Of a stretch of DNA of 64,000 nucleotides, positions 45,329 to 64,000 are shown piece after piece. The position numbers were made by a program, and so were the translations under genes. The notes under the pieces were generated by a model, which had not been told where the DNA came from, ran no database searches, and worked only from the letters and a program-made list of their open reading frames with translations. Origin of the DNA: an uncultured Acidobacteriota bacterium (GTDB taxonomy: Bacteria > Acidobacteriota > Vicinamibacteria > Fen-336); the NCBI GenBank assembly GCA_963720545.1, contig OY970399.1, positions 2,016,001 to 2,080,000 on the forward strand, read 5' to 3'. How positions within the stretch are numbered: position 1 is the first letter of the stretch; each line of letters starts with the position of its first letter.

Positions 45329-46287
45329 TGCGCCGCGCCCTTCGTCACCAGCTCGATCCTCACCCGCTGGTCGGCCGCGACCGCTTCCCCGCGCAGCAGC
45401 TTCACGGCGCTTTCCACCGCGACTCGGCCCATTTCTGCCGGAAACTGCGCGACCGACGCCGCCATGGTGCCCGCTGCGATCGCCTTGCGGGCGTCGTCCA
45501 CCGCATCGAAGCCGACCACCATGATCTTGCCGGTCTTGTTGGCCGCCGCAATCGCCTCCATTGCACCGAGCGCCATCATGTCGTTGCAGGCGAACACCGC
45601 GTCGATCTCGGGATGCGCCTGCAGCATGTTCTGGAAGACGTTGAAGCCGAGGTCGCGCTCCCAGTTGGCGGGCTGCGACGCGACGATGACGATGCCCGGA
45701 TGCGCGGCGAGCGCCTGCTTCAACCCCTGCATGCGCGAGTCGCCGGTCTCGTGGCCGGGAATCCCCTCGAGCACCGCGAGCTTCGCCTTGCCTCCTGTCA
45801 CGGTGGCGATGTATTCGCCGGCGAGCCGCCCGCCCTCGCTGTTGTCCGAGCCGACGAACGAGCCGATCTTCACGTGAGCCTCGGCCGCCGCCGTCGGATC
45901 GACGCGGGTGTCGACCACCACCACCGGGATCGACGCGGCATTCGCCTTGCTGATCGCCGGCACGATCTCGCGCGAGCCGCTCGGCGTGATCGCGAGCGCG
46001 CCGATCCCTGTCTGCACCAGGTTCTCGACGATCTGCATCTGCTTCTCGACGTCGATCTCGCGCTCGGCCGCCTGCACCACCAGCTCGACTCCGGCCTTCT
46101 GCGCAGCCTCCTCGGCGCCGCGCTGCATGTCGATGAAGAACGGGCTGTTGAGCGTCTTCAGCACCAGCGCGATGCGCGGCTTGCTGCCCGCTGCCGGCGC
46201 CGGCTGCTGCGCACGGCAGCCGGGTAACGCAAAGACGGCGGCCGATGCCAGCGTGCCAATGGCGGCGAGATGATGCCGAATCTTCAT
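45325..46287 (-). CDS. Sugar ABC transporter substrate-binding lipoprotein (RbsB-like)
   Basis: ALPGC lipobox; TLNSPFF, SDNSEGG, NDMMALG, GFDA. Confidence 0.9.
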   Translation of the reverse strand: MKIRHHLAAIGTLASAAVFALPGCRAQQPAPAAGSKPRIALVLKTLNSPFFIDMQRGAEEAAQKAGVELVVQAAEREIDVEKQMQIVENLVQTGIGALAITPSGSREIVPAISKANAASIPVVVVDTRVDPTAAAEAHVKIGSFVGSDNSEGGRLAGEYIATVTGGKAKLAVLEGIPGHETGDSRMQGLKQALAAHPGIVIVASQPANWERDLGFNVFQNMLQAHPEIDAVFACNDMMALGAMEAIAAANKTGKIMVVGFDAVDDARKAIAAGTMAASVAQFPAEMGRVAVESAVKLLRGEAVAADQRVRIELVTKGAAH

Positions 46288-47252
46288 GGATGCCTCCTGG
46301 AGTTCTTGAGGACCGAGTCGAGCAGCACGGCCGAGACGATGACGCTGCCGATCACCACCTGCTGCAGGAACGAGGAGATGCCGAGCAGGTTGAGGCCGTT
46401 GCGCAGCACCCCCATGATCAGCGCGCCAATGAGCGTGCCGCCCGCCGAGCCGGAGCCGCCCAGCAGGCTGGTGCCGCCGATGACGGCTGCCGCGATCGCA
46501 TCGAGCTCGTACGAAATGCCCGCGATCGGCTGCGCCGAGTTGATGCGCGCGGTGAGCAGGACGGCCGCGAACGCGCTGGCGAGGCCGGACAGCGCGTAGA
46601 CCACCGTCTTGTGGAACGCGACCGCGACGCCCGAGAGCCGCGCCGCCTCCTCGTTGCCGCCGATCGCGAACACGTAGCGGCCGAAGCGGGTGCGCGTCAG
46701 CATGAAGTGCGCGCCGACGTAGACGACGATCGTCACCAGCACCGGTACCGGGATGCCGGCGACGCGCCCGGTGGCGATGCCGCGAAAGGACGCCTCGAAG
46801 CCGGAGATCGGCCGGCCGTCGGTGAACAGCAGCGCCAGGCCGCGCGCCACGCTCATCATGCCGAGGGTGGCGATGAACGGCGGCAGCCGGCCGCGCGTGA
46901 TCAGGAGGCCGTTGCACACGCCGCACACCGTGCCGGCCGCGAGGCTCAGCGGGATGGCGAGCGCCGGCGGGTAGCCGGCCTTGAGCGCCGCTCCGAGCAC
47001 CACGCCGGCGAGCGCGACGATCGAACCCACCGACAGGTCGATGCCGCCGGTGAGGATGACGCAGGTCATGCCCACGGCGATGACCGCGTTGATCGAGGTC
47101 TGCTCGCAGACATTGAGGAGGTTCGACACGGTGAGGAAATACGGCGTCACGAACGCCAGCAGGACGCAGAGGCCGAAAAGGCCCGCGAGCGTTCCCAGCT
47201 CACGGTGGCCGCGCAGCTTCGCCAGCGCCGATCCGAGCAGGGGCGCTTTCAT
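46284..47252 (-). CDS. Sugar ABC transporter permease (RbsC-like)
   Basis: GGIDLSVGS, PPFIATLG, AIGGNEEAARLSG, YELDAIAAAVIGGTSL. Confidence 0.92.
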   Translation of the reverse strand: MKAPLLGSALAKLRGHRELGTLAGLFGLCVLLAFVTPYFLTVSNLLNVCEQTSINAVIAVGMTCVILTGGIDLSVGSIVALAGVVLGAALKAGYPPALAIPLSLAAGTVCGVCNGLLITRGRLPPFIATLGMMSVARGLALLFTDGRPISGFEASFRGIATGRVAGIPVPVLVTIVVYVGAHFMLTRTRFGRYVFAIGGNEEAARLSGVAVAFHKTVVYALSGLASAFAAVLLTARINSAQPIAGISYELDAIAAAVIGGTSLLGGSGSAGGTLIGALIMGVLRNGLNLLGISSFLQQVVIGSVIVSAVLLDSVLKNSRRHP

Positions 47253-48751
47253 GAAGCTTGCGCCTCAGCTTCGCCAAGCGCGGCCGCCAGCACCTGCGCC
47301 TGGGTGGCGCCGACGGCGTCGAACTGCGCGGCCACGCGGCCCCGGCTCAGCACCAGGATACGGTCGCTCATGCCGAGTATCTCCGGCAGCTCGGACGAGA
47401 TCATCAGGATGGCGGCGCCGCGGGCGGTGAGCGCATTCATCAGCTCGTAGATCTCGACCTTCGCGGACACGTCGATGCCACGCGTCGGTTCATCCATCAG
47501 CAGCACCTCGGTGCTGGCGGCGAGCCACTTGCCCAGCACCACCTTCTGCTGGTTGCCGCCGGACAGGTGCACCACCGGCTGCCCGAGGCGCTGGGTCTTG
47601 ATGCGCAGGCCGTCGACCTGCGCCTGCGCCAGCGCCCGCGCGCGCCGCTCGTCGACCACCCCGAAGCGGCACAGGCGCGCAGTGCTTGGCAGCGAAAGGT
47701 TGTCGCCCACCGAGAGGCCGAGCACCAGGCCCTGGGTCTTGCGGTCTTCCGGCAGCAGGCCGATGCCGAGCGCTATGGCGGCCCGCGGCGAGGCTGCGCG
47801 CAGTTCGCGGCCGCCCACGAGCACCCGTCCGCTGTCGGCGCGGTCCGCGCCCGCGAGCACCCGCGCCAGTTCGGTGCGGCCCGCGCCGAGCAGCCCGGCG
47901 ACGCCGACGATCTCGCCGCGCCGCAGGCTGAAGCTGACATTGGCGAAGGCGCCGTGGCGGCCGAGGTTCTCGACCCGCAGCAGCTCCTCGCCCGGCACGC
48001 CGCGCCGCCGCGGGTAGTGGTCGCTGAGATCGCGGTTGGCCATGAGGCGGATCATCTCGGCCACTGGCGTCGCGGCGACGTCGCAGGTGGCCACATTGCG
48101 GCCGTCGCGCAGGATGGTGGCGCGCGCGCCGATGCGCTTCACTTCGTCCATGCGGTGCGAGATGTAGATGACCGCGACGCCGCGCGCCGTCAGCTTCGCG
48201 ATCGCCGCGAACAGCGCGCCGATCTCGGCGTCGGTGAGGGCCGAGGTCGGCTCGTCCATGATCAGGATGCGCGGCTCTTCGCGCAGCGACTTCGCCACTT
48301 CCACCATCTGCTGTTGCGCCACGCTGAGCAGCCCCACCGGCGTGTCGGCATCGATCGCGATGCCGAGCCCGCGCAGCAGCCGGTCGGTCTCCGCGCGCTG
48401 CGCCTTGCGATCGACCACGCCGAAGGCAGAGCGCTCGCGGCCGAGGAAGACGTTCTCGGCAGCCGACAGCTGCGGCACCAGGTTGAGTTCCTGGTAGATG
48501 GTGCGGATGCCGCGTGCCTGCGCGTCGCGCGGCCCGGCGAGCGTCATTGCCTCGCCGCCCAGCTCGATGCGGCCGGCGTCCATGCGCACGGCGCCGCTGA
48601 GGATCTTCATCAGTGTCGACTTGCCGGCGCCGTTCTCGCCGAGCAGCACGTGCACCTCGCCGCGCGCCACTTCGAGCGAGACGTCGTCGAGCGCCACGAC
48701 ACCCGGATAGGCCTTGCGGATGCCGCTCATGCACAGCGCAACGCCACTCAC
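47249..48751 (-). CDS. Sugar ABC transporter ATP-binding protein (RbsA-like)
   Basis: GENGAGKST, MDEPT, ISH, PEDRK, LSGGNQQK. Confidence 0.93.
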   Translation of the reverse strand: MSGVALCMSGIRKAYPGVVALDDVSLEVARGEVHVLLGENGAGKSTLMKILSGAVRMDAGRIELGGEAMTLAGPRDAQARGIRTIYQELNLVPQLSAAENVFLGRERSAFGVVDRKAQRAETDRLLRGLGIAIDADTPVGLLSVAQQQMVEVAKSLREEPRILIMDEPTSALTDAEIGALFAAIAKLTARGVAVIYISHRMDEVKRIGARATILRDGRNVATCDVAATPVAEMIRLMANRDLSDHYPRRRGVPGEELLRVENLGRHGAFANVSFSLRRGEIVGVAGLLGAGRTELARVLAGADRADSGRVLVGGRELRAASPRAAIALGIGLLPEDRKTQGLVLGLSVGDNLSLPSTARLCRFGVVDERRARALAQAQVDGLRIKTQRLGQPVVHLSGGNQQKVVLGKWLAASTEVLLMDEPTRGIDVSAKVEIYELMNALTARGAAILMISSELPEILGMSDRILVLSRGRVAAQFDAVGATQAQVLAAALGEAEAQAS

Positions 48752-49782
48752 CGCGTCGCCTCGGGGCGTTCAGCCGGCGGCGGCGCGGTGCTGCCCCGTA
48801 CCACCAGGCGCGGCGAGAGCACCGCCCGCCGCGGCCGCACGCGCTTGTCCTCGAGCCGGTCGAGCAGGCTCGAGACCGCGATCTGCCCCATCTCCAGCCG
48901 CGGCTGGTGCACGGTGGTCAGCGAGATGTGGCGCAGCGCCGCGAGCGAGGTGTTGTCGTAGCCGACCAGCGAGATGTCGTCGGGCACGCGCAGCCCGCGC
49001 TCTTCCACCGCGTTCAGGACGCCGATGGCGGCGAGATCGTTGGAGGCGAAGATGGCGGTGGGCCGCGGCCGCTCGTCGAGCAGCAGCAGCGCGCCCGAGT
49101 GCCCGCCCTCTTCGGTGAAGGCGCCCGGCACCACGCGCGCGAACCTGGCGAGGCGCAGCTGCTTCATCGCGTCCTGGTAGCCGCTGCGCCGCGCCGCGGC
49201 GCCGGCGCCCTGGCCGCCGTCGATATGCGCGATGCGCTTGTGGCCGAGCGAAGCGCAGTGCTTCACCACCGCAACGCCGCCCGCCCAGTCGTCGTTGGTC
49301 ACCGATGCCACCGACGCCGCCTTCGCCGCGCGTCCGACAAGCACCACCGGGATCTCGCGGCTGGCGATCGCGATGATGCGGCTCTCGAGCAGGGGTGCGG
49401 CGACGATCAGCCCGTCGACGCGCAGTTGCAGCAGCGCCTCGATCGCTTCATCCTCTTGCAGGGGGTTGCGGTTGCCGGTGTTGAGCAGCACCTGGTAGCC
49501 GGCGCGCGCCGCCTGGTCCTGGATGCCGGTGACCACATCAGCGAAGAAGGGATTGTGCAGGTCGGACACCATCACGCCGATCAGCCGCGTGCGCCGCTGC
49601 ACCAGTCCGCGCGCCATCGCGTTCGGCCGGTAGCCGAGTTCGCGGGCGGCGGCCAGCACCGCGGCGCGGCGCTGCGGCCGCACGTGCCGGCCGCCGCGGA
49701 TCACCAGCGAGACGAGGCTCTTCGAGACGCCCGCGCGCTGCGCGACGTCGGTGATCGTCGGCCGGCTTCGTTCCTTGACCAC
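48748..49782 (-). CDS. LacI family transcriptional regulator
   Basis: TITDVAQRAGVSKSLVS, LGYRPNAMARGL, VPDDISLVGYD. Confidence 0.93.
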   Translation of the reverse strand: MVKERSRPTITDVAQRAGVSKSLVSLVIRGGRHVRPQRRAAVLAAARELGYRPNAMARGLVQRRTRLIGVMVSDLHNPFFADVVTGIQDQAARAGYQVLLNTGNRNPLQEDEAIEALLQLRVDGLIVAAPLLESRIIAIASREIPVVLVGRAAKAASVASVTNDDWAGGVAVVKHCASLGHKRIAHIDGGQGAGAAARRSGYQDAMKQLRLARFARVVPGAFTEEGGHSGALLLLDERPRPTAIFASNDLAAIGVLNAVEERGLRVPDDISLVGYDNTSLAALRHISLTTVHQPRLEMGQIAVSSLLDRLEDKRVRPRRAVLSPRLVVRGSTAPPPAERPEATR

Positions 49783-49832
49783 TTGACAGCCGACTCCTTG
49801 GCTCGCTAGCTTACCGCCGGTGGAACGTTCCA
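49783..49832 (+). promoter_or_regulatory. iolB promoter with LacI-type operator
   Basis: TTGACA-18bp-TAGCTT, then perfect palindrome TGGAACGTTCCA at 49821-49832. Confidence 0.7.
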
Positions 49833-50710
49833 AAGAAACGCAGCTCCACATCCCCGCGGGCAGCGCCGCGGCGGGCGCTGCGGGCGGCGACCTGCTGGTG
49901 ATCACGCCCGAATCGGCGGGCTGGTCGTTCGCGGGATTGCGCGTCGTGAAGATTGCGCCGGGCAGGAGCCGCGCCTTCCAGGCCGGACGCGACGAGCTGC
50001 TGGTGCTGCCGCTGACCGGCAGCGCGACCGTGCGCTGCGAAGGCAAGAGCGTTCGCGCTCGAAGGACGCGCGTCGGTGTTCGCGCGCGTCAGCGACTTCG
50101 CCTACGTGCCAGCGGCGCCGCGTTCGAGATCGAGAGCGAGGGCGGCGGCGAGTTCGCGCTGCCGGCGGCCCGCGCGCGCCGCAAGCTGGCGGCGGCCTAC
50201 GGCCCGGCCGAATCGGTCGCGATCGAGATTCGCGGCAAGGGCAGCGCGACCCGGCAGGTCAACAACTTCTGCGCACCCGGCGCCTTCGAGGCCGACCGCC
50301 TGGTGGCCGTCGAGGTGCTCACCCCCGGCGGCAACTGGTCGTCCTATCCCCCGCACAAGCACGATGAAGCCCGTGCCGGCGAGGCCATCCTCGAGGAGAT
50401 CTACTATTTCCGCGTCGCTGGCAAGGACGGCTTCGGCTTCCACCGCACCTACACCGACGACGGCGCCATCGATGCGAACGCCTGCATCCGCGACGGCGAT
50501 GCGTTTCTCATCCCGCGCGGCTATCATGGGCCATCGGTCGCGGCCCCCGACCATCCTCTTTATTACCTGAACGTCCTGGCGGGCCCCGCCGCTGAGCGCA
50601 CCATGGCTTTTTGCGACGACCCGCGCCACGCCTGGATCCGCGCCGGGTGGGCAAACCAGGCTCCGGACCCACGTGTGCCGATGACCTCGGCGCGCGCGGG
50701 CGCACGGTAA
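49820..50710 (+). CDS. iolB: 5-deoxy-glucuronate isomerase; compensating frameshifts at about 50051 and 50110
   Basis: ITPESAGW, TPGGNWSSYPPHKHD, EEIYYF, PRGYHGP, YYLNVLAGP; the conserved GRASVF...DFAYVP segment is in a shifted frame. Confidence 0.9.
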   Translation: MERSKETQLHIPAGSAAAGAAGGDLLVITPESAGWSFAGLRVVKIAPGRSRAFQAGRDELLVLPLTGSATVRCEGKSVRARRTRVGVRARQRLRLRASGAAFEIESEGGGEFALPAARARRKLAAAYGPAESVAIEIRGKGSATRQVNNFCAPGAFEADRLVAVEVLTPGGNWSSYPPHKHDEARAGEAILEEIYYFRVAGKDGFGFHRTYTDDGAIDANACIRDGDAFLIPRGYHGPSVAAPDHPLYYLNVLAGPAAERTMAFCDDPRHAWIRAGWANQAPDPRVPMTSARAGAR

Positions 50711-50721
50711 GGGCGGAGGCC

Positions 50722-52548
50722 ATGGCGACGCGGCGGCTGACCACCGCGCAGGCGCTGGTCGAGTTCCTGGCGGTGCAGCACACCGTGCGCGACGGTATGG
50801 AGCGGCGGCTGGTGCCGCGCATGCTCGGCATCTTCGGCCACGGCAACGTCGCCGGCATCGGCCAGGCGCTGCAGCAGGCGCGGGCGCGCATGCCGTTCAT
50901 GCTGGTGCGCAACGAACAGGCGATGGTGCACATGGCCGCCGGCTTCGCGAAGATGGCGAACCGCCTGCAGACGCTGGCGTGCACCACATCGGTGGGTCCC
51001 GGCGCCACCAACATGATCACAGGCGCCGCCGGCGCCACCATCAACCGCCTGCCGGTGCTGCTGCTCCCCGGCGACGTGTTCGCGAACCGTTCGGTGAACC
51101 CGGTGCTGCAGCAGCTCGAGCATCCGCTGTCGCCAGATATTTCGGTGAACGATGCTTTTGTGCCAGTAAGCCGCTTCTTCGACCGGATCAACCGGCCCGA
51201 ACAGCTCGCCGCCTCGCTGCTCGAGGCGATGCGCGTCCTGACGAGCCCCGCGGCGACCGGTGCCGTGACCATCGCGATGCCGGAGGACGTGCAAAGCGAG
51301 GCGTGGGACTTTCCCGAGCGCCTGTTCGAGAAGCGAATCTGGCGCGTGGGCCGGCCCGTTCCGGAAGGCGAACAGATCGCCGCCGCGGCGACGCTCATCC
51401 GCGCTGCCGCCAGGCCGATGATCGTCGCGGGCGGCGGGGTGCTCTACTCGGAAGCGAGTGCAGCGCTCGACGCCCTCGTGACGCGAACCGGCATTCCCGT
51501 GGCGGAGACGCAGGCGGGAAAGGGCGCGCTGCCGTTCGACCATCCCGCGGCGCTCGGCGCGATGGGAACCACCGGCACGCCCGGCGCCAACCGCTGCGCC
51601 CGCGAAGCCGACCTCGTCGTCGGCATCGGCACACGGTACTCCGACTTCACCACCGCATCGAAGACGGCGTTCCAGGACGAGGCGGTCCGCTTCGTCAACA
51701 TCAACGTGAGCGCCGCCGATGCCGCGAAACACGCCGGCCTGCCGCTGGTCGGCGACGCGCGTGCCGCGCTCGAAGCGCTGCACCAGGCGCTGGCCGGTCA
51801 TGCGGTGGCGCCGGCGTGGCGTGCCGCGGCGCAGGCGGCAAACAAGGAATGGGACGCCGAGGTCGCGCGGCTCTACGCGCTGGGCCATGGCCCGCTGCCG
51901 GCGCAGAGCGAAGTGATCGGCGCCGTCAACGACACGGCGCAACCACGCGATGTCGTGGTGTGCGCGGCGGGCAGCGCCCCGGGCGACCTGCACAAGCTGT
52001 GGCGCAGCCGCGATCCGAAGGGCTACCACGTCGAGTACGGCTACTCGTGCATGGGCTACGAGATTCCCGGCGGACTCGGCGTGCGGCTCGCAGCCCCCGA
52101 CCGCGACGTGTTCGTGATCGTGGGCGACGGCTCGTGGCTGATGATGTCGAGCGAACTCGCCACCGCCGTGCAGGAACGCATCAAGGTGGTGGTGGTGCTC
52201 ATCGACAACGGCGGCTTTGCCTCGATCGGCGGGCTCTCCGAGTCGCTCGGCAGCGGCGGCTTCGGCACCGTCTATCCGCGGCGGGTCGATTTCGAGGCGA
52301 ACGCGCGCAGCCTGGGTGTCGCGACCACGCTGGCCCCGGACATCGCGAGCCTGCGTGAGGCGCTGCGCGCCGCCAAGGCGGGCAACGCGGCGCACGTCAT
52401 CGTCATCCGCACCGACCGCGAGGCGCGCGTTGGTGGCTACGACAGCTGGTGGGACGTGCCGGCGGCGGAGGTCTCCGAAATGCCGTCGGTCCAGGCCGCG
52501 CGCGCGGCATACGAGGCGGCGCGCCGCAAGAAGCGCGACCTCCTGTAG
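50722..52548 (+). CDS. iolD: 3D-(3,5/4)-trihydroxycyclohexane-1,2-dione acylhydrolase
   Basis: RLTTAQALV, GIFGHGNVAG, RNEQAM, PVLQQLE, EYGYSCMGYEI, GDGS, SWWDVP. Confidence 0.95.
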   Translation: MATRRLTTAQALVEFLAVQHTVRDGMERRLVPRMLGIFGHGNVAGIGQALQQARARMPFMLVRNEQAMVHMAAGFAKMANRLQTLACTTSVGPGATNMITGAAGATINRLPVLLLPGDVFANRSVNPVLQQLEHPLSPDISVNDAFVPVSRFFDRINRPEQLAASLLEAMRVLTSPAATGAVTIAMPEDVQSEAWDFPERLFEKRIWRVGRPVPEGEQIAAAATLIRAAARPMIVAGGGVLYSEASAALDALVTRTGIPVAETQAGKGALPFDHPAALGAMGTTGTPGANRCAREADLVVGIGTRYSDFTTASKTAFQDEAVRFVNINVSAADAAKHAGLPLVGDARAALEALHQALAGHAVAPAWRAAAQAANKEWDAEVARLYALGHGPLPAQSEVIGAVNDTAQPRDVVVCAAGSAPGDLHKLWRSRDPKGYHVEYGYSCMGYEIPGGLGVRLAAPDRDVFVIVGDGSWLMMSSELATAVQERIKVVVVLIDNGGFASIGGLSESLGSGGFGTVYPRRVDFEANARSLGVATTLAPDIASLREALRAAKAGNAAHVIVIRTDREARVGGYDSWWDVPAAEVSEMPSVQAARAAYEAARRKKRDLL

Positions 52549-52564
52549 CTGTAGCATCTTGCGA

Positions 52565-54241
52565 ATGAACGCAAAGACCAGGCCGTTGTCCCTTGCGCTC
52601 GCGGTGCTGGCGCTCGCGTGCCAGTCAACGAGCGGCCAGACGACCGGCGGCACGGCCGCCGCGGCGTCTCCTGCCAAACCCAGACTCATCCTGTTCGTTT
52701 CCGTGGACCAGATGAAAGCGGAGTATTTGCAGCGGTTCGCGCCGCTCTACAAGGCCGGGTTCAAGCGTCTGCTCGACCAGGGTGCGGTCTTCGCCAACGC
52801 CTACTACCGCCACGCCAACACCGAGACCGGGCCCGGGCATTCGGTGCTGCTCTCGGGGCGACACGCCGACACTTCCGGGATTGTCTCGAACGAGTGGTAC
52901 GACGAGCGCATCGCCGGCGAACTGAACGTGGTGGGCGACCCGGTGCAGACGACGGTTGGCGGCAAGGGTTTCGCGGCGTCGCCGGCGAATTTCCTGGCAA
53001 CGACCGTTGGCGACGCCTTGAAGAAGGCAAACCCGGCGTCGCGCGTCCTCGGCGTGTCGATGAAGGACCGCTCGGCCATTCTCATGGCCGGCCGCCGCGC
53101 CGACGGCGCCTTCTGGTACGAGGGCAGCACCGGCCAGTTCATCAGCAGCACCTACTATTTTCGCGACGGCAAGGCGCCCGCCTGGCTCGACCAGTGGAAC
53201 GCGGCGCGCAAGATCGACGCTTACGCCGGCAAGAGCTGGGAACGGCTGCTCGGCGACCTCGCGATCTATGAAAAGTATGCCGGCCCCGACGCGGTCGAGG
53301 GCGAGTCGGACCGCAAAGCCATCCTTTTCCCGCACCCGGTCGTCGGCGAAGCGGGTTCGGCGAAGCTCGGCGATTCGGTGCGCGCCACGCCGTTCATCGA
53401 CGAGCTGACCCTCGACATCGCGCTGCGCGTCGTGGACGAGTACCAGCTGGGCAAGGACGACGTCACCGACCTGCTGGCGGTGGGCTTCTCGGCCAACGAC
53501 GTCGTCGGCCACATGTACGGGCCCGACAGCCAGGAGATGCTCGACCAGCAGTTGCGCCTCGACCAGACCCTGGGCCGGCTGTTCGACGCCATCGACGAAC
53601 GGGTTGGCAAAGGCAACTGGGTGTTCGGCCTGTCTGCCGACCACGGCGCCATGCCCCTCGTCGAGGTGCTGCAAAAGCAGGGCCTGCCGGCCAAGCGCAT
53701 TCGCGACGAAGACGTGTTCGGCCCGGTGCAGGCGGCGGTGGCGCGGGCGTTTCCGGGCAAGGCCGACCTGCTGAATCCGTACGACGCGAGCCCGCCGAAC
53801 GGCTACCTCAACCTCGCGGCAATCCAGGCCGCGGGCCTGAAGCGCGCCGACGTGGAAGCGGTGGTGCGCAAGGCGCTGATGGCCACCGGCCTGGTCGACC
53901 GCGTCTACATGCATTCCGACTTCATCGGCGACCCGCCCGCGGACGATCCCGAGTTTCCGCTGTTCCGCGCCGCGTTCTTCGCGCCGCGCAGCCCGCACTA
54001 CATCGTCCGCCTGAAGAAGTGGCTGTATCTCAGCGATCGCCCGGGTGGCACCGGCCACGGCACGGTCCAGGAGTACGACCGCCACGTACCCGTAGCTTTC
54101 ATGGGACCGTGGATCAAGCACGGCGCCTTCACGGCGTCGGCCGGCCCTGAAGACATCGCGCCGACGCTGTCGAAGATCCTGGGCTTCGACTACCGGCTCG
54201 AGAAGGGCCAGCGGATCCTGGAGGAAGCACTGGCGCGATGA
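52565..54241 (+). CDS. Alkaline phosphatase family lipoprotein (PafA-like)
   Basis: LALAC lipobox; SVDQ, TETGPGH, SMKDRSAI, DVVGHMYGPDS, SADHG, TGHG. Confidence 0.88.
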   Translation: MNAKTRPLSLALAVLALACQSTSGQTTGGTAAAASPAKPRLILFVSVDQMKAEYLQRFAPLYKAGFKRLLDQGAVFANAYYRHANTETGPGHSVLLSGRHADTSGIVSNEWYDERIAGELNVVGDPVQTTVGGKGFAASPANFLATTVGDALKKANPASRVLGVSMKDRSAILMAGRRADGAFWYEGSTGQFISSTYYFRDGKAPAWLDQWNAARKIDAYAGKSWERLLGDLAIYEKYAGPDAVEGESDRKAILFPHPVVGEAGSAKLGDSVRATPFIDELTLDIALRVVDEYQLGKDDVTDLLAVGFSANDVVGHMYGPDSQEMLDQQLRLDQTLGRLFDAIDERVGKGNWVFGLSADHGAMPLVEVLQKQGLPAKRIRDEDVFGPVQAAVARAFPGKADLLNPYDASPPNGYLNLAAIQAAGLKRADVEAVVRKALMATGLVDRVYMHSDFIGDPPADDPEFPLFRAAFFAPRSPHYIVRLKKWLYLSDRPGGTGHGTVQEYDRHVPVAFMGPWIKHGAFTASAGPEDIAPTLSKILGFDYRLEKGQRILEEALAR

Positions 54242-55287
54242 AAATGCGCCTCACCACCGAGCGCGGCGCCGATTTCTGGAACGACTCGTGCGCGCCCAAC
54301 GAGCTGGCGGAGGCGGTGGCGGCCGGCGCCACCGGCGCTACTTCCAACCCGGTCATCGTGTACGCGGCCGTCAAGGCCGACCCGAAGACCTGGATGCCGG
54401 TGATCGACGGCCTCATCGCCGAGCGGACGACCGCTACCGAAGACGACATCGCCTGGGGCCTCATCGAGAGCGTCGGGGCACGCGCGAGTGCGGTGCTCGA
54501 CCCGACTTATGAGCGCACCGCCGGACGCAAGGGCTTTCTCTCGATGCAGGTGAGCCCGAAGCTGTACCGCGACGCCGCGGGCATGGCGAAGCACGGCCGG
54601 CAGCTCGCGGGGGTGGCGCGCAACGTGGCCATCAAGGTGCCCTCGACCGCAGCTGGGATCGCCGCGGGCGTCGAACTGGTGCAGGGTGGCATCAGCGTCA
54701 ACGCCACGGTGAGCTTCACGCTGTCGCAGGTGCTCGCCACGGCCGAGGCGTTCGAGAAGGCGCTCGACGAGGCGCGACAGAAAGGCGCCGACATGACGCG
54801 CCTGCACACCTATATCACCCTCATGGCGGGCCGCCTCGACGACCATCTGCAGCGGGTGATGGCGAAGGAGGGTGTGGTCATCGACCCCGGCCTGCTGCAC
54901 TGGGCCGGCATCGCCGTGTTCAAGAAGGCGCGCCGCATCTTCAAGGAGCGCGGCTATCGCAGCACGCTGCTGGCCGCGGCCTACCGCCATCACCTGCACT
55001 GGTCGCAGCTGATAGGCGAGGGCGTCATCCTCACTATCCCCTACGCGTGGTGGAAGCAGTTCGACGCATCGGACATCGCCGTCACCGACACGCTCGACAC
55101 GCCGGTGAACCCGGCCACGGTGCAGGCGCTCTACGACAACTTCGGCGAATTCCGCGCGGCCTACGACGAAGGTGCCATCACGGCCGACCGTTTTGCGAGC
55201 TACGGCGCCTCGGTCCACACCCTGAACCAGTTCCTCGCCGGCTACCAGGACCTCGTGGGCCTGGTCCGCGACCGCATGCTGCGCTAG
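54238..55287 (+). CDS. Transaldolase family protein
   Basis: WNDS, GATSNP, AIKVPST, VNATVSF, MAGRLDD. Confidence 0.85.
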   Translation: MKMRLTTERGADFWNDSCAPNELAEAVAAGATGATSNPVIVYAAVKADPKTWMPVIDGLIAERTTATEDDIAWGLIESVGARASAVLDPTYERTAGRKGFLSMQVSPKLYRDAAGMAKHGRQLAGVARNVAIKVPSTAAGIAAGVELVQGGISVNATVSFTLSQVLATAEAFEKALDEARQKGADMTRLHTYITLMAGRLDDHLQRVMAKEGVVIDPGLLHWAGIAVFKKARRIFKERGYRSTLLAAAYRHHLHWSQLIGEGVILTIPYAWWKQFDASDIAVTDTLDTPVNPATVQALYDNFGEFRAAYDEGAITADRFASYGASVHTLNQFLAGYQDLVGLVRDRMLR

Positions 55288-56821: not shown

Positions 56822-57520
56822 TTAGGCCGTAGCCGACTTCATCCGCCGGCTCTTGCGAACCTTTTCCCGCGGAATGTTGTAGCGCGCCAGGCGCAGGTAG
56901 ATGGTGCGGCGGGTGACGCCCATGAGCCGCGAAACCCGGGCGATGTTCCACTCGTTGCGGTTCAGGAGCAAAAGGAGCTTTTCCCGCTCCATGTCTTCGA
57001 CGGGGGTCCGCTCGAGGTAGGTTTCCCACTCCTCGACGCTGCGGGTCCGCTCCCGGCCAAAGGTGGCGTCGTTGACCGCCTTGGCGATTATCCGGGAGAA
57101 CTTGGCAAGCCGAGGGATGTCGTGCGGTTCGCAGAAGTGCGGATCGGCGCTATCTATATAGATGAGGGCAACGATGGAGCCGGAGTCGTGAACGGGCACC
57201 ACGGCGAAGCTGGCGATAGCCGTATCGTCGAGGTTTACGCGCCTATCCGCTGATTTATCAGTGACATAGAAGGTATTACCCTTCTCGAGAAAGTCCCGTT
57301 CGCGTTCCCAGACCCCCCCGGCGACGTCGAGAACCGACTGGTCCACCCGACTGGAGGCAAAAAGCCGTATTTTGGAGCCTTCCAGCGTAAAAACGGCCGC
57401 AGAACGGCCATTTGTCAGGGAAGCCATCACTTCCAGCGTGCGCTCAGCCAGCCGCTTGGGGTCGTCCGCCCCCACCACCAGATTTGTAAACGAATCGATC
57501 AGATCCACGTGCGGGTTCAT
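56822..57520 (-). CDS. GAF-like + Fis-type HTH transcriptional regulator without AAA+ domain
   Basis: AGGAG RBS; SFAVVPVHDSGSIVALIYIDS GAF-like segment; C-terminal EREKLLLLLNRNEWNIARVSRLMGVTRRTIYLRL HTH_8. Confidence 0.8.
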   Translation of the reverse strand: MNPHVDLIDSFTNLVVGADDPKRLAERTLEVMASLTNGRSAAVFTLEGSKIRLFASSRVDQSVLDVAGGVWERERDFLEKGNTFYVTDKSADRRVNLDDTAIASFAVVPVHDSGSIVALIYIDSADPHFCEPHDIPRLAKFSRIIAKAVNDATFGRERTRSVEEWETYLERTPVEDMEREKLLLLLNRNEWNIARVSRLMGVTRRTIYLRLARYNIPREKVRKSRRMKSATA

Positions 57521-57731
57521 GCCTGCTCCTCGACGGACTGACTGTATACCCCGACCAGCCCGGCCGTTTGTGATGGGGGATGTCTTAGGAAGCAGTATAA
57601 ATCGTATTGACGAGTAGGTGTATACTTTCCACCGTTTCCTGCTACCCAACAGAGTAGGCGGAGATACGGGCTAGATCACAAAAGAAGTTGGGACGAGGCA
57701 TTGGTAGTTCGTATCTCTCAGATTTAAATCA

Positions 57732-57757
57732 GTTTTTCGATGTACACATCGAAAAAC
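57732..57757. promoter_or_regulatory. Perfect 12-bp inverted repeat (candidate operator) upstream of the repeat-peptide gene
   Basis: GTTTTTCGATGT-AC-ACATCGAAAAAC, immediately before the AGAGGA RBS. Confidence 0.6.
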
Positions 57758-57771
57758 ACAAAGAGGATGAA

Positions 57772-58131
57772 ATGCGTAAGTCGTTTGTGATTGCTGTCAC
57801 TCTTTCGTGTGTCGCGTTAGGTTTTGCGGCGCTCCAATCGTCTGGCGCAAAACAAGCGCACGGCTTCACGAGTGGTCCACCAAGCGTGCAGCTTGCACAT
57901 GGCTTCACGAGTGGTCCGCCCAACGTTCGCGTTGCCCACGGCTTCACGAGCGGTCCGCCGAGCGTCCACGTTGCGCATGGCTTCACCAGCGGTCCGCCGA
58001 ACGTTCGCGTTGCGCATGGCTTCACCAGCGGTCCGCCGGCCGTTCGCGTTGCACATGGCTTCACGAGCGGTCCGCCCAACGTTCGCGTTGCCCATGGCTT
58101 CACCAGTGGTCCGCCGAGGGTCGTCGCCTAG
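57772..58131 (+). CDS. Secreted multi-repeat peptide precursor: 28-aa leader/signal + 7 x 13-aa AHGFTSGPPxVxx
   Basis: AGAGGA RBS; MRKSFVIAVTLSCVALGFAALQSSGAKQ then seven units ending exactly at TAG; only synonymous variation in the core. Confidence 0.85.
   Translation: MRKSFVIAVTLSCVALGFAALQSSGAKQAHGFTSGPPSVQLAHGFTSGPPNVRVAHGFTSGPPSVHVAHGFTSGPPNVRVAHGFTSGPPAVRVAHGFTSGPPNVRVAHGFTSGPPRVVA
57856..58128 (+). repeat. Coding tandem repeat, 7 x 39 bp
   Basis: GCNCAYGGCTTCACSAGYGGTCCRCCN core repeated every 39 bp. Confidence 0.95.
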
Positions 58132-58204
58132 GGTGACAAAGCGCCAGCCGCCGCTCAGGCGTACGTCACGCGGTACCAAACGCCTCCTGTCTTAGGATCA
58201 ATCG

Positions 58205-58933
58205 ATGGCCTCTGCCCCCGCGCCGTGGATTGGAACGTGCATCGAGTGGGCGACCAACGTAGTCGTTATCCTGGCGTTGGTGGGGCTGGTCTACCGACGG
58301 AAATACCGGCAGTCCACGCTTATTGGCATCTATCTCGCCAGCGCTTTGATAACCGATCAAATGATGCTCCGCTGGCCAACGCGTTTTTTCAATCGTTCCT
58401 TTTGGTTTGGGAAGGAACTGCTTCTCAACGTCCTCATGCTGGGTGTGGCGTATGAGGTTGGTCTCCGCGTGCTCCGCGCTTTCCCCGGTGCGCGATCGAC
58501 AGCGCGCCTCTTTGTCGGCCTGATACTGATCGGAACAACCGTCTCTTTGCTTCCGGTGTGGCCAGACGGCGGCGGGGTCACCGGCGCAGCGGTCACCCTG
58601 CAAACAAGGCTTCTTAACGGATCTGTGTGGCTTTTTAGCGGGCTCTCGGCAGTTATTCTTTGGTACCGGCTTCCGGTCGCGCGGCTACAAAAAGCCGTAC
58701 TGGTCGGTTTCGTACCTTTCCTACTCGCGTCAACTGCGGGTCTCAACGTCATTCAGTCCGCAACGACACCGGAGACTCTCGCCGCAATCAAACCGTCGAT
58801 GAATCTGGCTCTCGCCGGTGCCTACCTGGGTCTTGTCACTTATTGGGCGTATGTCATCTGGAAAACCGCCGAGGACACGCTGCAGCGTGGCGAACCAGCT
58901 CATGCCGCGAAGAACGCCACCCAACCCCTGTGA
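58205..58933 (+). CDS. Hypothetical 7-TM membrane protein
   Basis: Seven hydrophobic segments seen by eye, with basic loops after TM1, TM3 and TM5. Confidence 0.8.
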   Translation: MASAPAPWIGTCIEWATNVVVILALVGLVYRRKYRQSTLIGIYLASALITDQMMLRWPTRFFNRSFWFGKELLLNVLMLGVAYEVGLRVLRAFPGARSTARLFVGLILIGTTVSLLPVWPDGGGVTGAAVTLQTRLLNGSVWLFSGLSAVILWYRLPVARLQKAVLVGFVPFLLASTAGLNVIQSATTPETLAAIKPSMNLALAGAYLGLVTYWAYVIWKTAEDTLQRGEPAHAAKNATQPL

Positions 58934-59009: not shown

Positions 59010-59687
59010 ATGTGGTGGATGGTTGCAACAACGGCAATGGGCGCTTTGGCCCTCCTCTTCCTGCTCGGCAAGCGGAACGAGACCGAGGTCCAGCGCGACT
59101 GGGACACTCTCCTCACGCCAAAGGGCGAAAAGCTCTACCACGCGATTGAAAACCGGTTCCGAGTGGAGCTCGCCTTGGCTGAGATGACCTACGAGGACGC
59201 TTTCTCGGTGCGTGAACTCGGGTCGCACGAGGAGGCGATGCACCTCCTCGATGTCGGCTTCAAGGCCATTGAGCGCTTCTCGCCGGACATGATGAAGATG
59301 CTGTCCACGATGACCGTCTTCTCGCGCATGGTCTCGGCGATGGCGCCGGTTCGTCCGCTGCGGCCCGCCGATTTCAAGCTTTCGCAGCTCGCGAGCCTTG
59401 CGCACCTCAACCGCATCCTGCACCACTTCGTGATCTCGACTTCGGAACGCTATCGCCTGCGCCTGTACATGATTGGCCGCGGCTTCGGCATGGCCGGCCG
59501 CCAGCTCATGAAGTCCACCAAGCGCATCGTCGACAGCTCGCCCGATTCGGCGCTCGAGTGGCAGCAGATCCGCGCGATCCGCCACGACTTCCAGACCCTG
59601 ACCGACGAATCTCTCGAGAGCCTGCGCGTCCTGCTCACTTCGCTGGCAGCCGAACGCAAGGACGTCTACCAGAAGATCGTCGTCTAG
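59010..59687 (+). CDS. Hypothetical protein with N-terminal membrane anchor and helical soluble domain
   Basis: MWWMVATTAMGALALLFLLGKR anchor; GC3-biased codons. Confidence 0.75.
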   Translation: MWWMVATTAMGALALLFLLGKRNETEVQRDWDTLLTPKGEKLYHAIENRFRVELALAEMTYEDAFSVRELGSHEEAMHLLDVGFKAIERFSPDMMKMLSTMTVFSRMVSAMAPVRPLRPADFKLSQLASLAHLNRILHHFVISTSERYRLRLYMIGRGFGMAGRQLMKSTKRIVDSSPDSALEWQQIRAIRHDFQTLTDESLESLRVLLTSLAAERKDVYQKIVV

Positions 59688-59741: not shown

Positions 59742-60338
59742 ATGTTGAACAGCATGTCCATCGCCGACGCGGTGCTCGATCGGCTGCTCCAGGTCAATCC
59801 CAGGCAACAGGCCGAAGCACTCCTCAGCTTGATCGCCTCGCATTCAGGCGCCGAGACCAGCGCCTTGTTCCGCGTGACCGCGAAGGACGCTCGACCGGAG
59901 CTGTTCGTCGCCCGCATGGTCGACCAGGCGGCCCTCGACAATGCGGCGGAGTGCTGGAGCACGGACAGCCATCGCCTTGGGGACGGGGAGCCCGTGGACG
60001 GACCCGGTTATCTGGTGATCGGCATTCCCGGCGGCCTCGTCTACCTCTCGGGAAAGCTGCCGATCAGCCGCGAGCGTGCGCAGGAAGTGGTGGGTGCCGC
60101 GAAGCGCGCTCTGTCGTTCGCCATCGGCTGGCGCGAAGCCGTCGCCGAGCCCACCGTGGTCGAATGGCTCGCATCGCGCAGCGCGAGCGAGATTCGCCGC
60201 GAGAAGCTCCTCCAGGTGCTGCGCGACGCCGGCTGGAACAAGGCCAAGGCGGCGCGCATCTGGGGCTGCAGCCGCGCCACCATGTACAACATGATGGAAA
60301 GCCTCGGAATCCCCCTGGACGAGCGCGTCGGAAAATGA
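59742..60338 (+). CDS. Degenerate GAF-like + Fis-type HTH regulator (start may be 59754)
   Basis: C-terminal RREKLLQVLRDAGWNKAKAARIWGCSRATMYNMMESLGI; N-terminal part resembles 56822-57520. Confidence 0.75.
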   Translation: MLNSMSIADAVLDRLLQVNPRQQAEALLSLIASHSGAETSALFRVTAKDARPELFVARMVDQAALDNAAECWSTDSHRLGDGEPVDGPGYLVIGIPGGLVYLSGKLPISRERAQEVVGAAKRALSFAIGWREAVAEPTVVEWLASRSASEIRREKLLQVLRDAGWNKAKAARIWGCSRATMYNMMESLGIPLDERVGK

Positions 60339-60380: not shown

Positions 60381-61669
60381 GTGATACCGGAGCGGAAATC
60401 CATCGGTTCGCGCCTGATACGGACCGCTTTGGTACTGCTTCTGTTCCTCGCTTCAGTATTTGCCGTTTACGAAGCGACGCGCCGGTTTGGGTTCGTGCAG
60501 GACGACTTCCTGTTTGCACGGCCGTTGACGGCGCGTCAGCTCGCTTCGACGTTTTTCGGGAACTGGGAGCCGTTTGGTCTTGGCAATTCCCATTACCGGC
60601 CGGTGGTGGCGCTGACGCTTGCGGCCGACTACGAGATTCATGGTGTGCGGCCGCGCGGGTACCACGAGACAAACCTCATCCTGCTGGCTTTTTGCGGGCT
60701 GGCGTCTTTCGCGCTGCTGCGGCGGCTGGGCTGCGGGCCGCTGCCTGCATTCCTGGCGAGCCTGGCGTGGCTCGTTCATCCCATGAGCGCGTCCTCGGCG
60801 GCCTGGTGCGCGCAGCGGACCGATTCCGTCATGGCGATCTTCTACCTGCTGGCCGTGCGAGCAGCGCTTGCTCCCGCCTTCTCGAGGACCGAGCTGCTGA
60901 AAGTGCTGGTGTTCGGGGTGCTCGCGCTTGGCTCGAAGGAGATGGCGGTCACGCTACCCGGCCGTCATTGCCATGGCGCTTTGGGTCTTCAAGCCTGCCG
61001 ATTGGCGGCGACGCATCCTGCCGGTCGGTCGGCGGTACGTTGGTGCTCGCGGTGGCGCTGGTCGTTGACTTCAGCCGGCTCTTTCCCGAGAAGACGCATT
61101 TCTATCCCCCACCGCTGGGATACGCGCTGCACATACTCTTCCCAGTCTTCTGGCCAACTTCGTACCTGCACTTCTGGAATGCGCGGATTCCCGATCCGCG
61201 CGATGTCTGGACGGCGCTCGTGTTCTTTGCCGGTTCGGCGTGGCTCGCGATGCGGCACAAGGAACAGTTGTCGCTGCGGTTCGCTGCTGCCGGGCTGCTG
61301 TGGCCGGTCATCACGCTGGTGCCGGTCTTTGGCCTCGATGATCCGGACAGCTACCGGCTTGGATTGCTGCCAGCGTTCGGATTCGCGTTCATCGTGGCCG
61401 CGTTTGCCAATGGGTTTCGGCGGCACCGGCCGGTCGTGCTCCTGGCCGCTGCCGGCCTTGCCATCTGGTTCGTGCCGATGGCGCGCGGCAGTGCGGCGGT
61501 CTGGGGGCCCGGCGGCTTTCAGTACCAGAGCTTGTTGAAGTGGCGCGCGCAGCAGCCCGAGTGGCAGGCGTTACTTACGCCTGAGATGCGGGCGTTGTTC
61601 GAGCGGCAGGTGCGGCGGGATCTGGGGCCGGACTACCTACGGGCTGGACCTACGGAGCCGCAGCGCTAG
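60381..61669 (+). CDS. GT-C-like (TMTC/PMT-type) membrane glycosyltransferase; frameshift near 60960
   Basis: FVQDD, HYRPV, GYHETNLIL, VHPM...AW...RTD, LGSKEMAVTLP, then continues in another frame. Confidence 0.65.
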
Positions 61670-61725: not shown

Positions 61726-63159
61726 TCAGGGCTTCGGTTTCGCGGGTTGCTTAGTCGTTAGCTGGCGGATGACGTCGTAGAACATGGGGACCGCCTTGCG
61801 CAGTTGGTCGGTGCTGATGCGTTCGTCGTCGCCGTGGGTGGTGTTGCTTTCGTCCTGGGTGGCGCCGTAGGTGGTGAAGCCGTAGCAGTTGGGGCCGATG
61901 GTGCGGAACAGGACGCATTCGGTGGCGCCCGACAGAAGCTTGGTGGTGACGGGGACGCCTGGGTAGTTCTTCCTGAAGACACCTTCTGCGATACGGAAGA
62001 GCTCCGTGTCCACCGGGCTCTGGTTGGGGGCGCGGAAGTTGGGGCGCGGCGTGATTTCCACCGTAGGATCGCCGATCACCTTGGTGATCTCGTCGAGGAA
62101 CGCCTTCGGGTCCTCGCCGGGCAGGAGGCGCACGTCGAGTTCGGCTTCGGCGGTGCCTGGGATGACGTTGGTTTTGTAGCCCGCATGCACCACCGTGATC
62201 GAGATGGTGTTGCGCAGCATCGCCGAGACGTCGCGGTCGGCGTAGAGGACGTCGGCCGCCTTCGGGTCCTTGATGGCCGTCGCCAGGTCTTCGTACCAGG
62301 CCTTGCGGTCGCCCGACTGTGGCGCCAGGTCCTTGAAATACTTGGCGACCGACGGGATCACCTTCAGCTCGGTCTTGTAGAGGCGCACCTTCTCGAGCGC
62401 CCGGATCATGCGGTTGAGGGCCGAGTCGGCGATGGGGCGCGAGCCGTGGCCGGGCGTGCCGGTCGTTTTGAGCGTCAGCCAGTAGGGGCCCTTCTCGCCG
62501 GCGCCGAAGCCGAAGTAGACCGGCTTGCCGCTCGCGTCGATCACGTTGTCCGAACCTTCGGTTATGACGTATTCAGCGGGCTTGATGATGTCGAGGAATC
62601 CGGCCGAATCGATGGCGCGGAAGGCGCCCAGGAAGTCCTGCTCCTCGTCGGCGGTGCCCATGAAGATGAGGTCGCGGTCGAGCGCCAGCTTCTCGCGCTT
62701 GGCGCGGATGAAGGCAACCAGCTGGATGATGCCCTCGCTCTTCATGTCCTGCGCGCCGCGGCCCCAGATGGCGCCATCTTTTTCGAGGCCGGAGAAGGGC
62801 GGGACAGACCAGCGCTTCGGGTCGGCCGGCACCACGTCCATGTGGTTCGTCAGCACCACCGGCTTGCGCGCGCCGCTGCCCTTCAGGATTGCGATGACGT
62901 TGGCGCGGCCGGGAGCGAACTCGTCGATGCGCGCCTCGATGCCTTCCTTCTCCAGCACCTTCTTGTAGAAGGCGGCGGCCTTCAGCTCGTTGCCGGGCGG
63001 CACCGTGGTGTCTATCTGCAGGTACTCCTTCAGCAGCGAGACGGCCAGGTCCTGGTACACGGTGTCCGCCGCGGCGGTTGCGGTGTTGGCTGCGGCGGGT
63101 TTTGCGGGCGCCGCTTTGGGCGCGAGAAGGAGCAGGCTGAGGCTTGCGGCTGTGAGCAT
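61726..63159 (-). CDS. M20/M25/M40 family metallopeptidase, exported
   Basis: NHMDVVPA, GRGAQDMKS, ADEE, GHGS, NVIPG, HGDDERI. Confidence 0.9.
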   Translation of the reverse strand: MLTAASLSLLLLAPKAAPAKPAAANTATAAADTVYQDLAVSLLKEYLQIDTTVPPGNELKAAAFYKKVLEKEGIEARIDEFAPGRANVIAILKGSGARKPVVLTNHMDVVPADPKRWSVPPFSGLEKDGAIWGRGAQDMKSEGIIQLVAFIRAKREKLALDRDLIFMGTADEEQDFLGAFRAIDSAGFLDIIKPAEYVITEGSDNVIDASGKPVYFGFGAGEKGPYWLTLKTTGTPGHGSRPIADSALNRMIRALEKVRLYKTELKVIPSVAKYFKDLAPQSGDRKAWYEDLATAIKDPKAADVLYADRDVSAMLRNTISITVVHAGYKTNVIPGTAEAELDVRLLPGEDPKAFLDEITKVIGDPTVEITPRPNFRAPNQSPVDTELFRIAEGVFRKNYPGVPVTTKLLSGATECVLFRTIGPNCYGFTTYGATQDESNTTHGDDERISTDQLRKAVPMFYDVIRQLTTKQPAKPKP

Positions 63160-63221
63160 CCTGGGAGGATAAACTGCCTCGCCAGCCATCGCCATCTTGC
63201 GCCCGAATTGAGGAGACCCTG

Positions 63222-64000
63222 ATGATGCTTCGCTTCGTCGCCGCGGCATGCGTACTTGCTGCCACCGCTTCCAGCCTGCACGCGGCCGGCCGGCCCCTGA
63301 AGATCGACGACATGTTCGCCCTGCACGACGTCTCGGAGCTGGCCTTGAGCCCGGACGGCACGCGCATCGCCTACACGTTGACGAAGACGGACGCGAAAAA
63401 AGACGACACCGACAGCGACATCTACATGATCCCGTTCGCGGGCGGCGCGCCGGTGCGGATCACCACCAGCGAGCAGTCGGAGGAGCACCCCCGGTGGAGC
63501 CCCGACGGCAAGTGGCTGGCGTTCCTGTCCGACCGCGACGACGACAAGGCACAGGTGTACGTGATGCCCACGAGCGGCGGCGAGGGGCGGAAGCTCACCA
63601 ACCTCAAGGGCAGGGTGTCGAGCTTCCAGTGGTCGCACGACAGCACCAGGCTGCTCGTCGTCGCGCGCGATCCGGATCCGGACGACGATGACGATGCTGC
63701 TTCCGCCGCGAGCAAGACGACCGACGCGGAAGACCGGACACCGAAGCCAATCGTCATCAACCGCCGCCAGTTCAAGATGGACGGCACCGGGTACCTCTCC
63801 GATCGCCGCAGCCACCTCTGGGTCTTCGACCTCGCGAGCAAGTCGGCGTTCCAGCTGACGTCGGGCAACTTCGACGACGGCAACCCCGACTGGTCGCCCG
63901 ACGGCCGCTCGGTGGTGTTCGGCTCCAATCGCACCACCGATCCCGACTCGAACAAGAACAGCGACATCTTCGTGATCGACGCCTACCCTGGTGCCAGGCC
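63222..64000 (+). CDS. S9-type (dipeptidyl/acylaminoacyl) peptidase N-terminal beta-propeller with PD40 repeats, partial
   Basis: GAGGAG RBS; MMLRFVAAACVLAATASSLHAAGRPLKIDDMFALHDVSELALSPDGTRIAY; repeated WSPDG; catalytic domain not in window. Confidence 0.75.
   Translation, partial: MMLRFVAAACVLAATASSLHAAGRPLKIDDMFALHDVSELALSPDGTRIAYTLTKTDAKKDDTDSDIYMIPFAGGAPVRITTSEQSEEHPRWSPDGKWLAFLSDRDDDKAQVYVMPTSGGEGRKLTNLKGRVSSFQWSHDSTRLLVVARDPDPDDDDDAASAASKTTDAEDRTPKPIVINRRQFKMDGTGYLSDRRSHLWVFDLASKSAFQLTSGNFDDGNPDWSPDGRSVVFGSNRTTDPDSNKNSDIFVIDAYPGAR

Follow-up and report, generated by a model that had tools for sequence, protein, structure and literature searches.

A 119-aa peptide precursor of an uncultured Acidobacteriota bacterium (57772..58131, + strand) carries a leader followed by seven HGFTSGPP cores with 5-aa x-V-x-V/L-A linkers, and its gene belongs to a cassette, conserved in one order of Vicinamibacteria, that also comprises a divergent GAF–Fis-HTH regulator, a seven-transmembrane (7TM) protein and a membrane-anchored four-helix bundle. 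The precursor ORF is real, is under selection and is part of an apparently undescribed signalling unit. Our main reading, to which we assign a probability of roughly 65%, is that a secreted, protease-released peptide is sensed by the 7TM protein and relayed without a kinase to a regulator of the cassette's own promoter. Judged from sequence, cassette and precursor likely form an undescribed cell-to-cell signalling circuit common to many uncultured soil Acidobacteria. Positions given below are those of the window, i.e. the whole 64,000-nucleotide stretch that was analysed (contig OY970399.1, positions 2,016,001 to 2,080,000 of the forward strand), which has a GC content of 68.7%.

The precursor gene and its repeated cores

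Translation confirmed the layout that had been read from the sequence alone: a 28-residue N-terminus, then seven AHGFTSGPP units at a 13-residue spacing, with the spacers SVQL, NVRV, SVHV, NVRV, AVRV, NVRV and RVVA in that order, and a TAG stop codon. The leader starts with MRK and has a hydrophobic stretch at residues 5-21; this basic-then-hydrophobic arrangement is, as judged by eye, of Sec type, with a putative signal-peptidase site at S24-G25-A26. A GAGGA-like ribosome site lies 5' of the ATG. Directly 5' of the ribosome site is a perfect CGATGTACACATCG-like palindrome (window 57739-57750).

Core codons vary as the sequence-only reading had listed, through synonymous changes alone: the seven cores differ at 6 nucleotide sites, all of them third codon positions, and none of the 8 distinct substitutions alters the protein (chance probability roughly 2e-5). 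The protein-level selection on the core that was proposed there is borne out by a pS of 0.476 and a pN of 0, compared with 0.228 and 0.243, respectively, for the six spacers. The seven cores contain no Cys, Asp or Glu. A Pfam match of the precursor to Extensin_2 (E 1.8e-5) was rejected as reflecting Pro/Ser/His composition, and a lipoprotein reading was likewise rejected, T-L-S-C being unlike a lipobox and the Cys not conserved.

Between 57669 and 57957, a stretch that includes the leader and the first two cores, there are zero differences from a DNA-run contig of another study. The exact AHGFTSGPP core pattern was found neither elsewhere in this genome nor in the 400 other genomes of the class (401 searched in all), where other core-pattern matches carried 1-2 mismatches and occurred at about the rate of a reversed control. 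A protein search with the precursor returned 0 of 4740 candidates at E≤10, and the exact protein is missing from a 15-billion-sequence protein collection; such precursor genes are therefore easily missed.

Transcription of the cassette is weakly hinted at by RNA contigs. One of these (58092-58319, 228 nt) is identical at a depth of 2.2 and may stem from DNA carry-over, and short contigs of low depth also fall in the regulator and helical-protein genes, the word shares of the RNA runs being 0.05-0.07. None of the RNA contigs reaches into the first six cores. The runs that hold the cassette are from soil and rhizosphere.

A four-gene cassette and its precursor family

The 7TM gene was found in 60 of 78 genomes of the order (47 of 59 in the family) and in 5 of 201 genomes of a phylum-wide sample, 3 of these 5 being weak matches in other classes. 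A single-sequence locus scan of genome contigs returned nothing; an alignment-based scan succeeded. Homologues numbered 88 by word search and 740 representatives by profile (E≤0.001), relatives are labelled Vicinamibacteria or Acidobacteriota, and Atlas matches of the 7TM protein are Acidobacteriota clusters. Among 122 distinct 7TM loci, 89 extend far enough downstream to show the helical gene, which 86 of them have; of the 85 that extend far enough upstream, 83 have the regulator.

Gene order in the window is gltX, regulator (divergent), precursor, 242-aa 7TM protein, 225-aa helical protein and a second GAF-like HTH paralogue. In this type I layout the regulator diverges from the precursor, 7TM and helical genes; in type II it is the precursor that diverges from the regulator, 7TM and helical genes. 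The divergence of precursor and regulator, which share a promoter region in both types, is constant across layouts, and the 7TM and helical genes switch sides.

The regulator (56822..57520, − strand) has GAF and Fis-type HTH domains (PF01590 and PF02954) and no AAA+ domain; its ORF reaches 57649, the probable start being the ATG at 57520. The second paralogue (59742..60338, + strand) is 26% identical to the first and specific to this locus. Within the divergent promoter lies a conserved motif, GTATA-N6-TTGAC-N-TGTATACT (57592..57629, + strand), which is a candidate operator or -10 element. GTATACA occurs in 44 of 79 promoter regions versus 1.2 in shuffles. When the 4.09-Mb genome was scored with a matrix derived from 46 of the 78 other regions, this locus being left out, 57592-57629 came 2nd. 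The motif stands ~150 bp from the precursor ATG here, as opposed to ~45 bp in most relatives. The matrix yielded no convincing regulon in the genome, its other top matches being AT-rich stretches; no sigma-70 consensus promoter was found, and three terminator-like sites are at chance level.

A leader-bearing precursor with 1-10 Pro-ended cores was found at 97 of the 98 7TM loci having enough flank, so that the search for similar ORFs beside 7TM homologues suggested by the sequence-only reading was productive. This tally began with a rule pick in 96 of 98 and was then corrected by hand: at L143 the rule pick was wrong, yet a divergent precursor is present; L017 has a multi-core precursor that is frameshifted; and at L077 the 7TM gene is broken and the precursor absent. 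The loose rule also fires in 60 of 400 control regions, which took in internal ATGs of long ORFs. A strict core signature, written after the data were seen and admitting H for this locus, is matched by 80 of the 94 distinct precursors and by none of the 400 control regions. Given the range of copy numbers in relatives, the "exactly seven" of the sequence-only reading is a correct count here and not a special one.

An identical stretch of at least 6 residues is repeated in 26 of the 94 precursors, all 26 of type I and with up to 10 copies (e.g. EGIKGFPP x10, DGGIGPP x8 and DGFTGIPP x3); in one of the 26, L032, the repeat is not the core. The other 68 have no repeated unit. Multi-core precursors are confined to type I loci. 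Whole-gene precursor duplications 5' of one 7TM gene were seen at L016 and L130, as described for phr genes.

Of the 94 precursors, 86 have a core that can be parsed; the first core residue is D (46 precursors), E (39) or H (1, this gene) and the second is G or D, values that hold partly by construction because the core pattern demands D/E/H and then D/G; position 7 is P in 81 of 86. Ahead of the core, V occupies P4 in 44 of 86 precursors (background 6.6%), and 69 of 86 have A, M, L, F, Y, V or C at P1 (background 27%), a P4-P1 pattern that V-R-V-A fits in this precursor. Read in this family register, the core is HGFTSGPP and the Ala is the last spacer residue, so that the 9-aa core AHGFTSGPP of the sequence-only reading is invariant here and begins one residue too early. 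By the same register, HGFTSGPP is, in all seven copies, the His variant of a D/E-G...PP type, the step from Asp to His at position 1 being one base change (GAC to CAC). The proposal of a processed signal cut after the Ala gains support from the V-x-small-(A/M/L) stretch that immediately precedes family cores. The absence of acidic residues noted earlier is true of this member and not of the family, in which D or E starts 85 of 86 cores.

Within flanks of 1.5-4 kb, the conserved neighbours are cassette genes, gltX-like genes and M20/S9 peptidases only. Synteny of gltX was found in 16 of 31 type I versus 0 of 12 type II loci, about half of the matches being at ~30%. The M20 peptidase (window 61726-63249, − strand) is syntenic in 10 of 37 type I and 0 of 25 type II loci, and the S9 peptidase with a PD40/DPPIV_N propeller (window 63222 onward, + strand) in 9 of 37 and 0 of 25; both may be candidates for trimming Pro-ended cores, or syntenic bystanders like gltX. 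No modifying enzyme for RiPP chemistry was seen in the cassette over the same flanks, which agrees with the earlier argument against graspetide, lasso or lanthipeptide chemistry at this locus. Cassette proteins matched no AgrB, ABC exporter or TPR family, and there is no GTPase among the conserved cassette genes.

Several further observations were made around these loci. A split membrane protein in the window (60381-61669, + strand; overlapping ORFs 60381-61538 and 60692-61669; no Pfam match) is probably one frameshifted gene or an assembly indel and was not seen next to the cassette elsewhere. In some type I loci (L004, L040, L055, L058, L060 and L063), the 7TM and helical genes are separated by an additional gene of ~80 aa (…RSARWDVIVEL…), which lies about 730-1020 from the start of the 7TM gene. 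Window 45325-55287 holds sugar ABC transporter, LacI-type regulator, iolB-, iolD- and transaldolase-like ORFs, named from their translations, of which the iolB-like one looks frameshifted near 50000. A distant second 7TM protein of the same family (L166, G000:C1:3713766-3714428; E 7.5e-7), without an adjacent precursor, regulator or helical gene, is possibly an orphan receptor.

In another class, a distant 7TM protein (L163; profile probability 89.5) lies behind a precursor with five ANMPVFPTPP-type repeats, and similar precursor-7TM pairs occur at L187/L188 and L186; a query for the distant 7TM protein of that class matched 2 of its 41 genomes. L186:700-1520 contains, 5' of a distant 7TM gene, two tandem precursors ending in MPIPMC(A/D)PDDPNACGMR, with a Cys pair; the peptides are possibly disulfide-closed. 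L187:1-300 and L188:1800-3310 hold an AEPFLPFPP-repeat precursor, two tandem 7TM genes and one helical protein with the start RRRKEQTWETLL, loosely like that of the 225-aa protein.

Predicted membrane proteins and the proposed circuit

The candidate receptor is a stand-alone 7TM protein of 242 aa (58205..58933, + strand) with a predicted N-out/C-in, GPCR-like arrangement, an orientation favoured by its K/R count (14 inside versus 6 outside). AlphaFold2 produced a model of seven helices at pLDDT 89. In a wide structural search the top 50 rows were all GPCRs or GPCR-like domains, the best GPCR match having a Z of 12.0 (rmsd 5.9, 189 aligned) on a scale where helical bundles can reach Z ~13 by common arrangement; Foldseek gave a best E of 0.033, none at E≤0.001, with GPCRs mixed with microbial rhodopsins. 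The protein belongs to no Pfam or NCBIfam family above cut-off and has no homology at E≤1 to solved structures among PDB sequences. Among 85 members a GPCR Pfam family is absent and one member matches 7TMR-DISM_7TM (E 7e-4). No retinal-type Lys is conserved in helix 7 (189-219), the conserved Lys residues being 70 and 163.

Conservation over 92 sequences, whose columns are not independent, is 0.40 in the outer half of the 7TM protein versus 0.60 in the inner half, the pattern expected of a receptor, and the outer half is the fastest-changing part of the cassette. Identity between this locus and 15 relatives is 0.28 for the outer half, 0.44 for the inner half, 0.60 for the helical protein and 0.65 for the regulator, compared with 0.35, 0.58, 0.74 and 0.76, respectively, among the relatives; since the values are lower across all parts, the divergence concerns the whole locus rather than just the pocket. 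A quick tree of 94 rows, from which L143, L032 and loci without a precursor pick were left out, places this 7TM protein in a clade of 22 rows, 21 of them with multi-core precursors (SH-aLRT 95); its neighbours there are the DGFTGIPP and DGM(T/V)GIPP loci (support 88), and its branch is long (1.31). The multi-core label needs 6 changes on this tree.

Of 59 type I 7TM proteins, 58 retain a basic residue in mid-TM3 (R/K78), the exception being the one described here, from the sole His-core locus. R/K78 is also missing from 4 of 26 type II proteins, yet these four have acidic cores, the five closest relatives (P0003-P0006 and P0008; 48-60% identical) likewise lack it (L, M, L, I and I), and the association of R78 loss with the His core amounts to one event. 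A complex prediction for 7TM residues 1-228 with precursor residues 30-63 scored 0.01 against a mark of 0.32, which counts neither way.

The 225-aa helical protein (59010..59687, + strand) is modelled at pLDDT 91.6 as one N-terminal membrane helix, basic residues and then a four-helix bundle, predicted to be cytoplasmic. Its fold matches (vinculin, Z 12.1; Rsd, Z 11.2; chemoreceptor domains; talin) are generic and tied, and thus show no function. Atlas scores were 0.75 only, the PDB sequence search gave a best E of 0.16, and there was no Pfam or NCBIfam family above cut-off and no MCP family match. Vps5, a weak match in 8 of 58 members, was rejected. Because the helical protein accompanies the cassette so constantly and the inner face of the 7TM protein is conserved, we regard it as a candidate relay or anti-activator.

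The circuit that we propose starts from what the sequences show, namely the ORF, the selection on its cores, the cassette, two predicted folds and a promoter motif conserved across loci; each step from export onwards is inferred. The Sec pathway would export the precursor via its hydrophobic leader, and a general extracellular protease would cut after the V-x-V-A linkers, which resemble sites typical of subtilisin-like enzymes. C-terminal trimming would stop near the Pro-Pro, releasing up to seven short peptides starting HGFTSGPP per precursor, with core repetition raising the dose. The peptide would then bind the variable outer pocket of the GPCR-shaped 7TM protein, and a relay lacking kinase and G protein, in which the membrane-anchored four-helix protein holds or releases the GAF-HTH regulator, would lead to control of the shared divergent promoter and hence to a quorum-type feedback loop. 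By exchanging D/E for H, this lineage would have gained a specificity of its own. A fuller version is tentative, and we would put it somewhat short of an even chance: that Acidobacteria have a neuropeptide-style system, running from polyprotein precursors through identical short peptides, a stand-alone GPCR-fold receptor and a four-helix relay to a GAF-HTH factor, with a specificity switch here, in which all seven copies went from Asp to His and the TM3 arginine was correspondingly lost.

It is unlikely that the precursor stays unreleased, held by an N-terminal helix anchor or cut a single time, with its Pro-rich tail acting as a tethered or short-range 7TM ligand that reports protease activity or the state of the envelope instead of cell density. 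In many members of the family the leader is a long hydrophobic stretch lacking a clear A-x-A site, single-core precursors have a C-terminal core that would need no release, and adhesion GPCRs with tethered agonists lead both fold lists, tied with other GPCRs; however, the P4-P1 pattern conserved before each core suggests cuts at the core start, and up to 10 identical cores suit dose amplification better.

Quite improbable, in our estimation, is a 7TM protein that processes or exports the peptide in an AgrB-like or CPBP-like manner, the peptide acting elsewhere, e.g. intracellularly on the GAF domain. GAF domains bind small ligands, the 7TM gene is the one nearest the precursor in type I loci, and E84 of the 7TM protein is 98% conserved; yet E84 sits at the predicted cytoplasmic end of TM3, the outer half is without conserved His, Cys or Ser (no catalytic residue of these kinds and no His/Cys pair is conserved in the 92 sequences), and the precursors bring their own leaders. 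Furthermore, the 7TM outer face is the most variable and the GAF protein the most conserved, the reverse of the prediction for variable peptides bound by GAF.

We give little credence to the peptide as an output, acting on other organisms or labelling kin or the surface, with the cassette sensing something else. The Pro/Gly-rich cores may loosely resemble plant peptide hormones, and the runs holding the cassette come from soil and rhizosphere, but core type tracks the 7TM tree, though kinship alone could do that, and the 7TM outer face varies along with core type. Hardly credible are the roles raised by the sequence-only reading, namely a peptide that binds metal through its His, or an amyloid or solenoid repeat that is left uncleaved: Xaa-Xaa-His and Xaa-His are known Cu/Ni-binding starts that a cut before V-A-H or A-H would expose, and the linkers alternate polar and hydrophobic residues, but the family register places His at position 1 where ATCUN/Xaa-His needs position 2 or 3 (the real cut site decides), His at position 1 is this lineage's variant (1 of 86 cores, the rest D/E) and metal binding hence not the family role, and the 68 of 94 precursors without a repeat, as well as a Pro-Pro every 13 residues that disfavours continuous beta structure, speak against an amyloid or solenoid.

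Significance and comparison with known systems

Most of what is known about peptide signalling in bacteria comes from Firmicutes, where it runs through kinases or cytoplasmic TPR receptors. The cassette has neither kinase nor TPR receptor, and two of its three proteins lie outside any Pfam family. If the main reading is true, an abundant uncultured soil lineage communicates via a new receptor and relay; if the fuller version is true, a bacterial family of peptide-activated GPCR-fold receptors would be in hand with about 100 natural ligand-receptor pairs. Natural pairs of a short peptide and a small GPCR-shaped protein would allow direct tests of how prokaryotic 7TM folds recognise peptides, which bears on the open question of GPCR origins (PMC13466386, PMC13581589). 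The word "Acidobacter" is absent from the main text of PMC13581589, the supplements of which could list these proteins. No paper on this cassette was found in the literature searched, a body that covers few subscription papers and no supplements. The natural peptide/7TM pairs could also serve as orthogonal signalling parts.

The yeast alpha-factor precursor MFalpha1 has a leader and tandem peptide copies, sensed by the GPCR Ste2. The likeness lies in a leader followed by tandem short peptides with spacers and in a GPCR-like 7TM protein as the likely sensor. In contrast to the yeast system, the cassette is bacterial, has no KR or EA/DA spacers and no G protein, and keeps ligand and receptor genes adjacent in one cell type, and it shows no homology to that system in sequence.

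In RRNPP systems the receptors are TPR proteins of the cytoplasm, which the peptide reaches after import. The cassette differs in having a membrane 7TM protein as partner, a GAF-HTH regulator, no TPR receptor and a diderm Acidobacterium as host. What it shares with Rap-Phr and NprR-NprX, as presented in PMC5199041, is a signal peptide, a linker and a short C-terminal core that is sometimes repeated, intragenic duplication of identical or diverged cores, and cognate pairs that diversify. The same paper states that a single phr gene can hold identical and diverged repeats, reports nprX duplications too, and mentions fungal pheromone repeats (PMC5199041).

AgrC, ComD, HisKA_7TM and 7TMR-DISM proteins offer a further parallel, a multi-pass membrane sensor beside a small peptide gene, and PMC13581589 describes 7TM sensors of bacteria and archaea that have GPCR-like folds, as well as GPCR-like 7TM domains within prokaryotic kinases and cyclases. 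Unlike the Agr/Com systems and the 7TM-fronted kinases and cyclases, the cassette has no kinase, cyclase or response regulator; its 7TM protein stands alone at ~230 aa, and no AgrB or peptidase-ABC exporter was seen. Sensory rhodopsin-Htr pairs resemble it in that a stand-alone prokaryotic 7TM protein is followed by a membrane-embedded helical partner (PMC13466386), whereas here the helix-7 Lys is not conserved, the partner has one membrane helix and no MCP match, and a peptide gene is linked. On the features tested, the cassette is outside the RRNPP, Agr/Com, rhodopsin and RiPP families.
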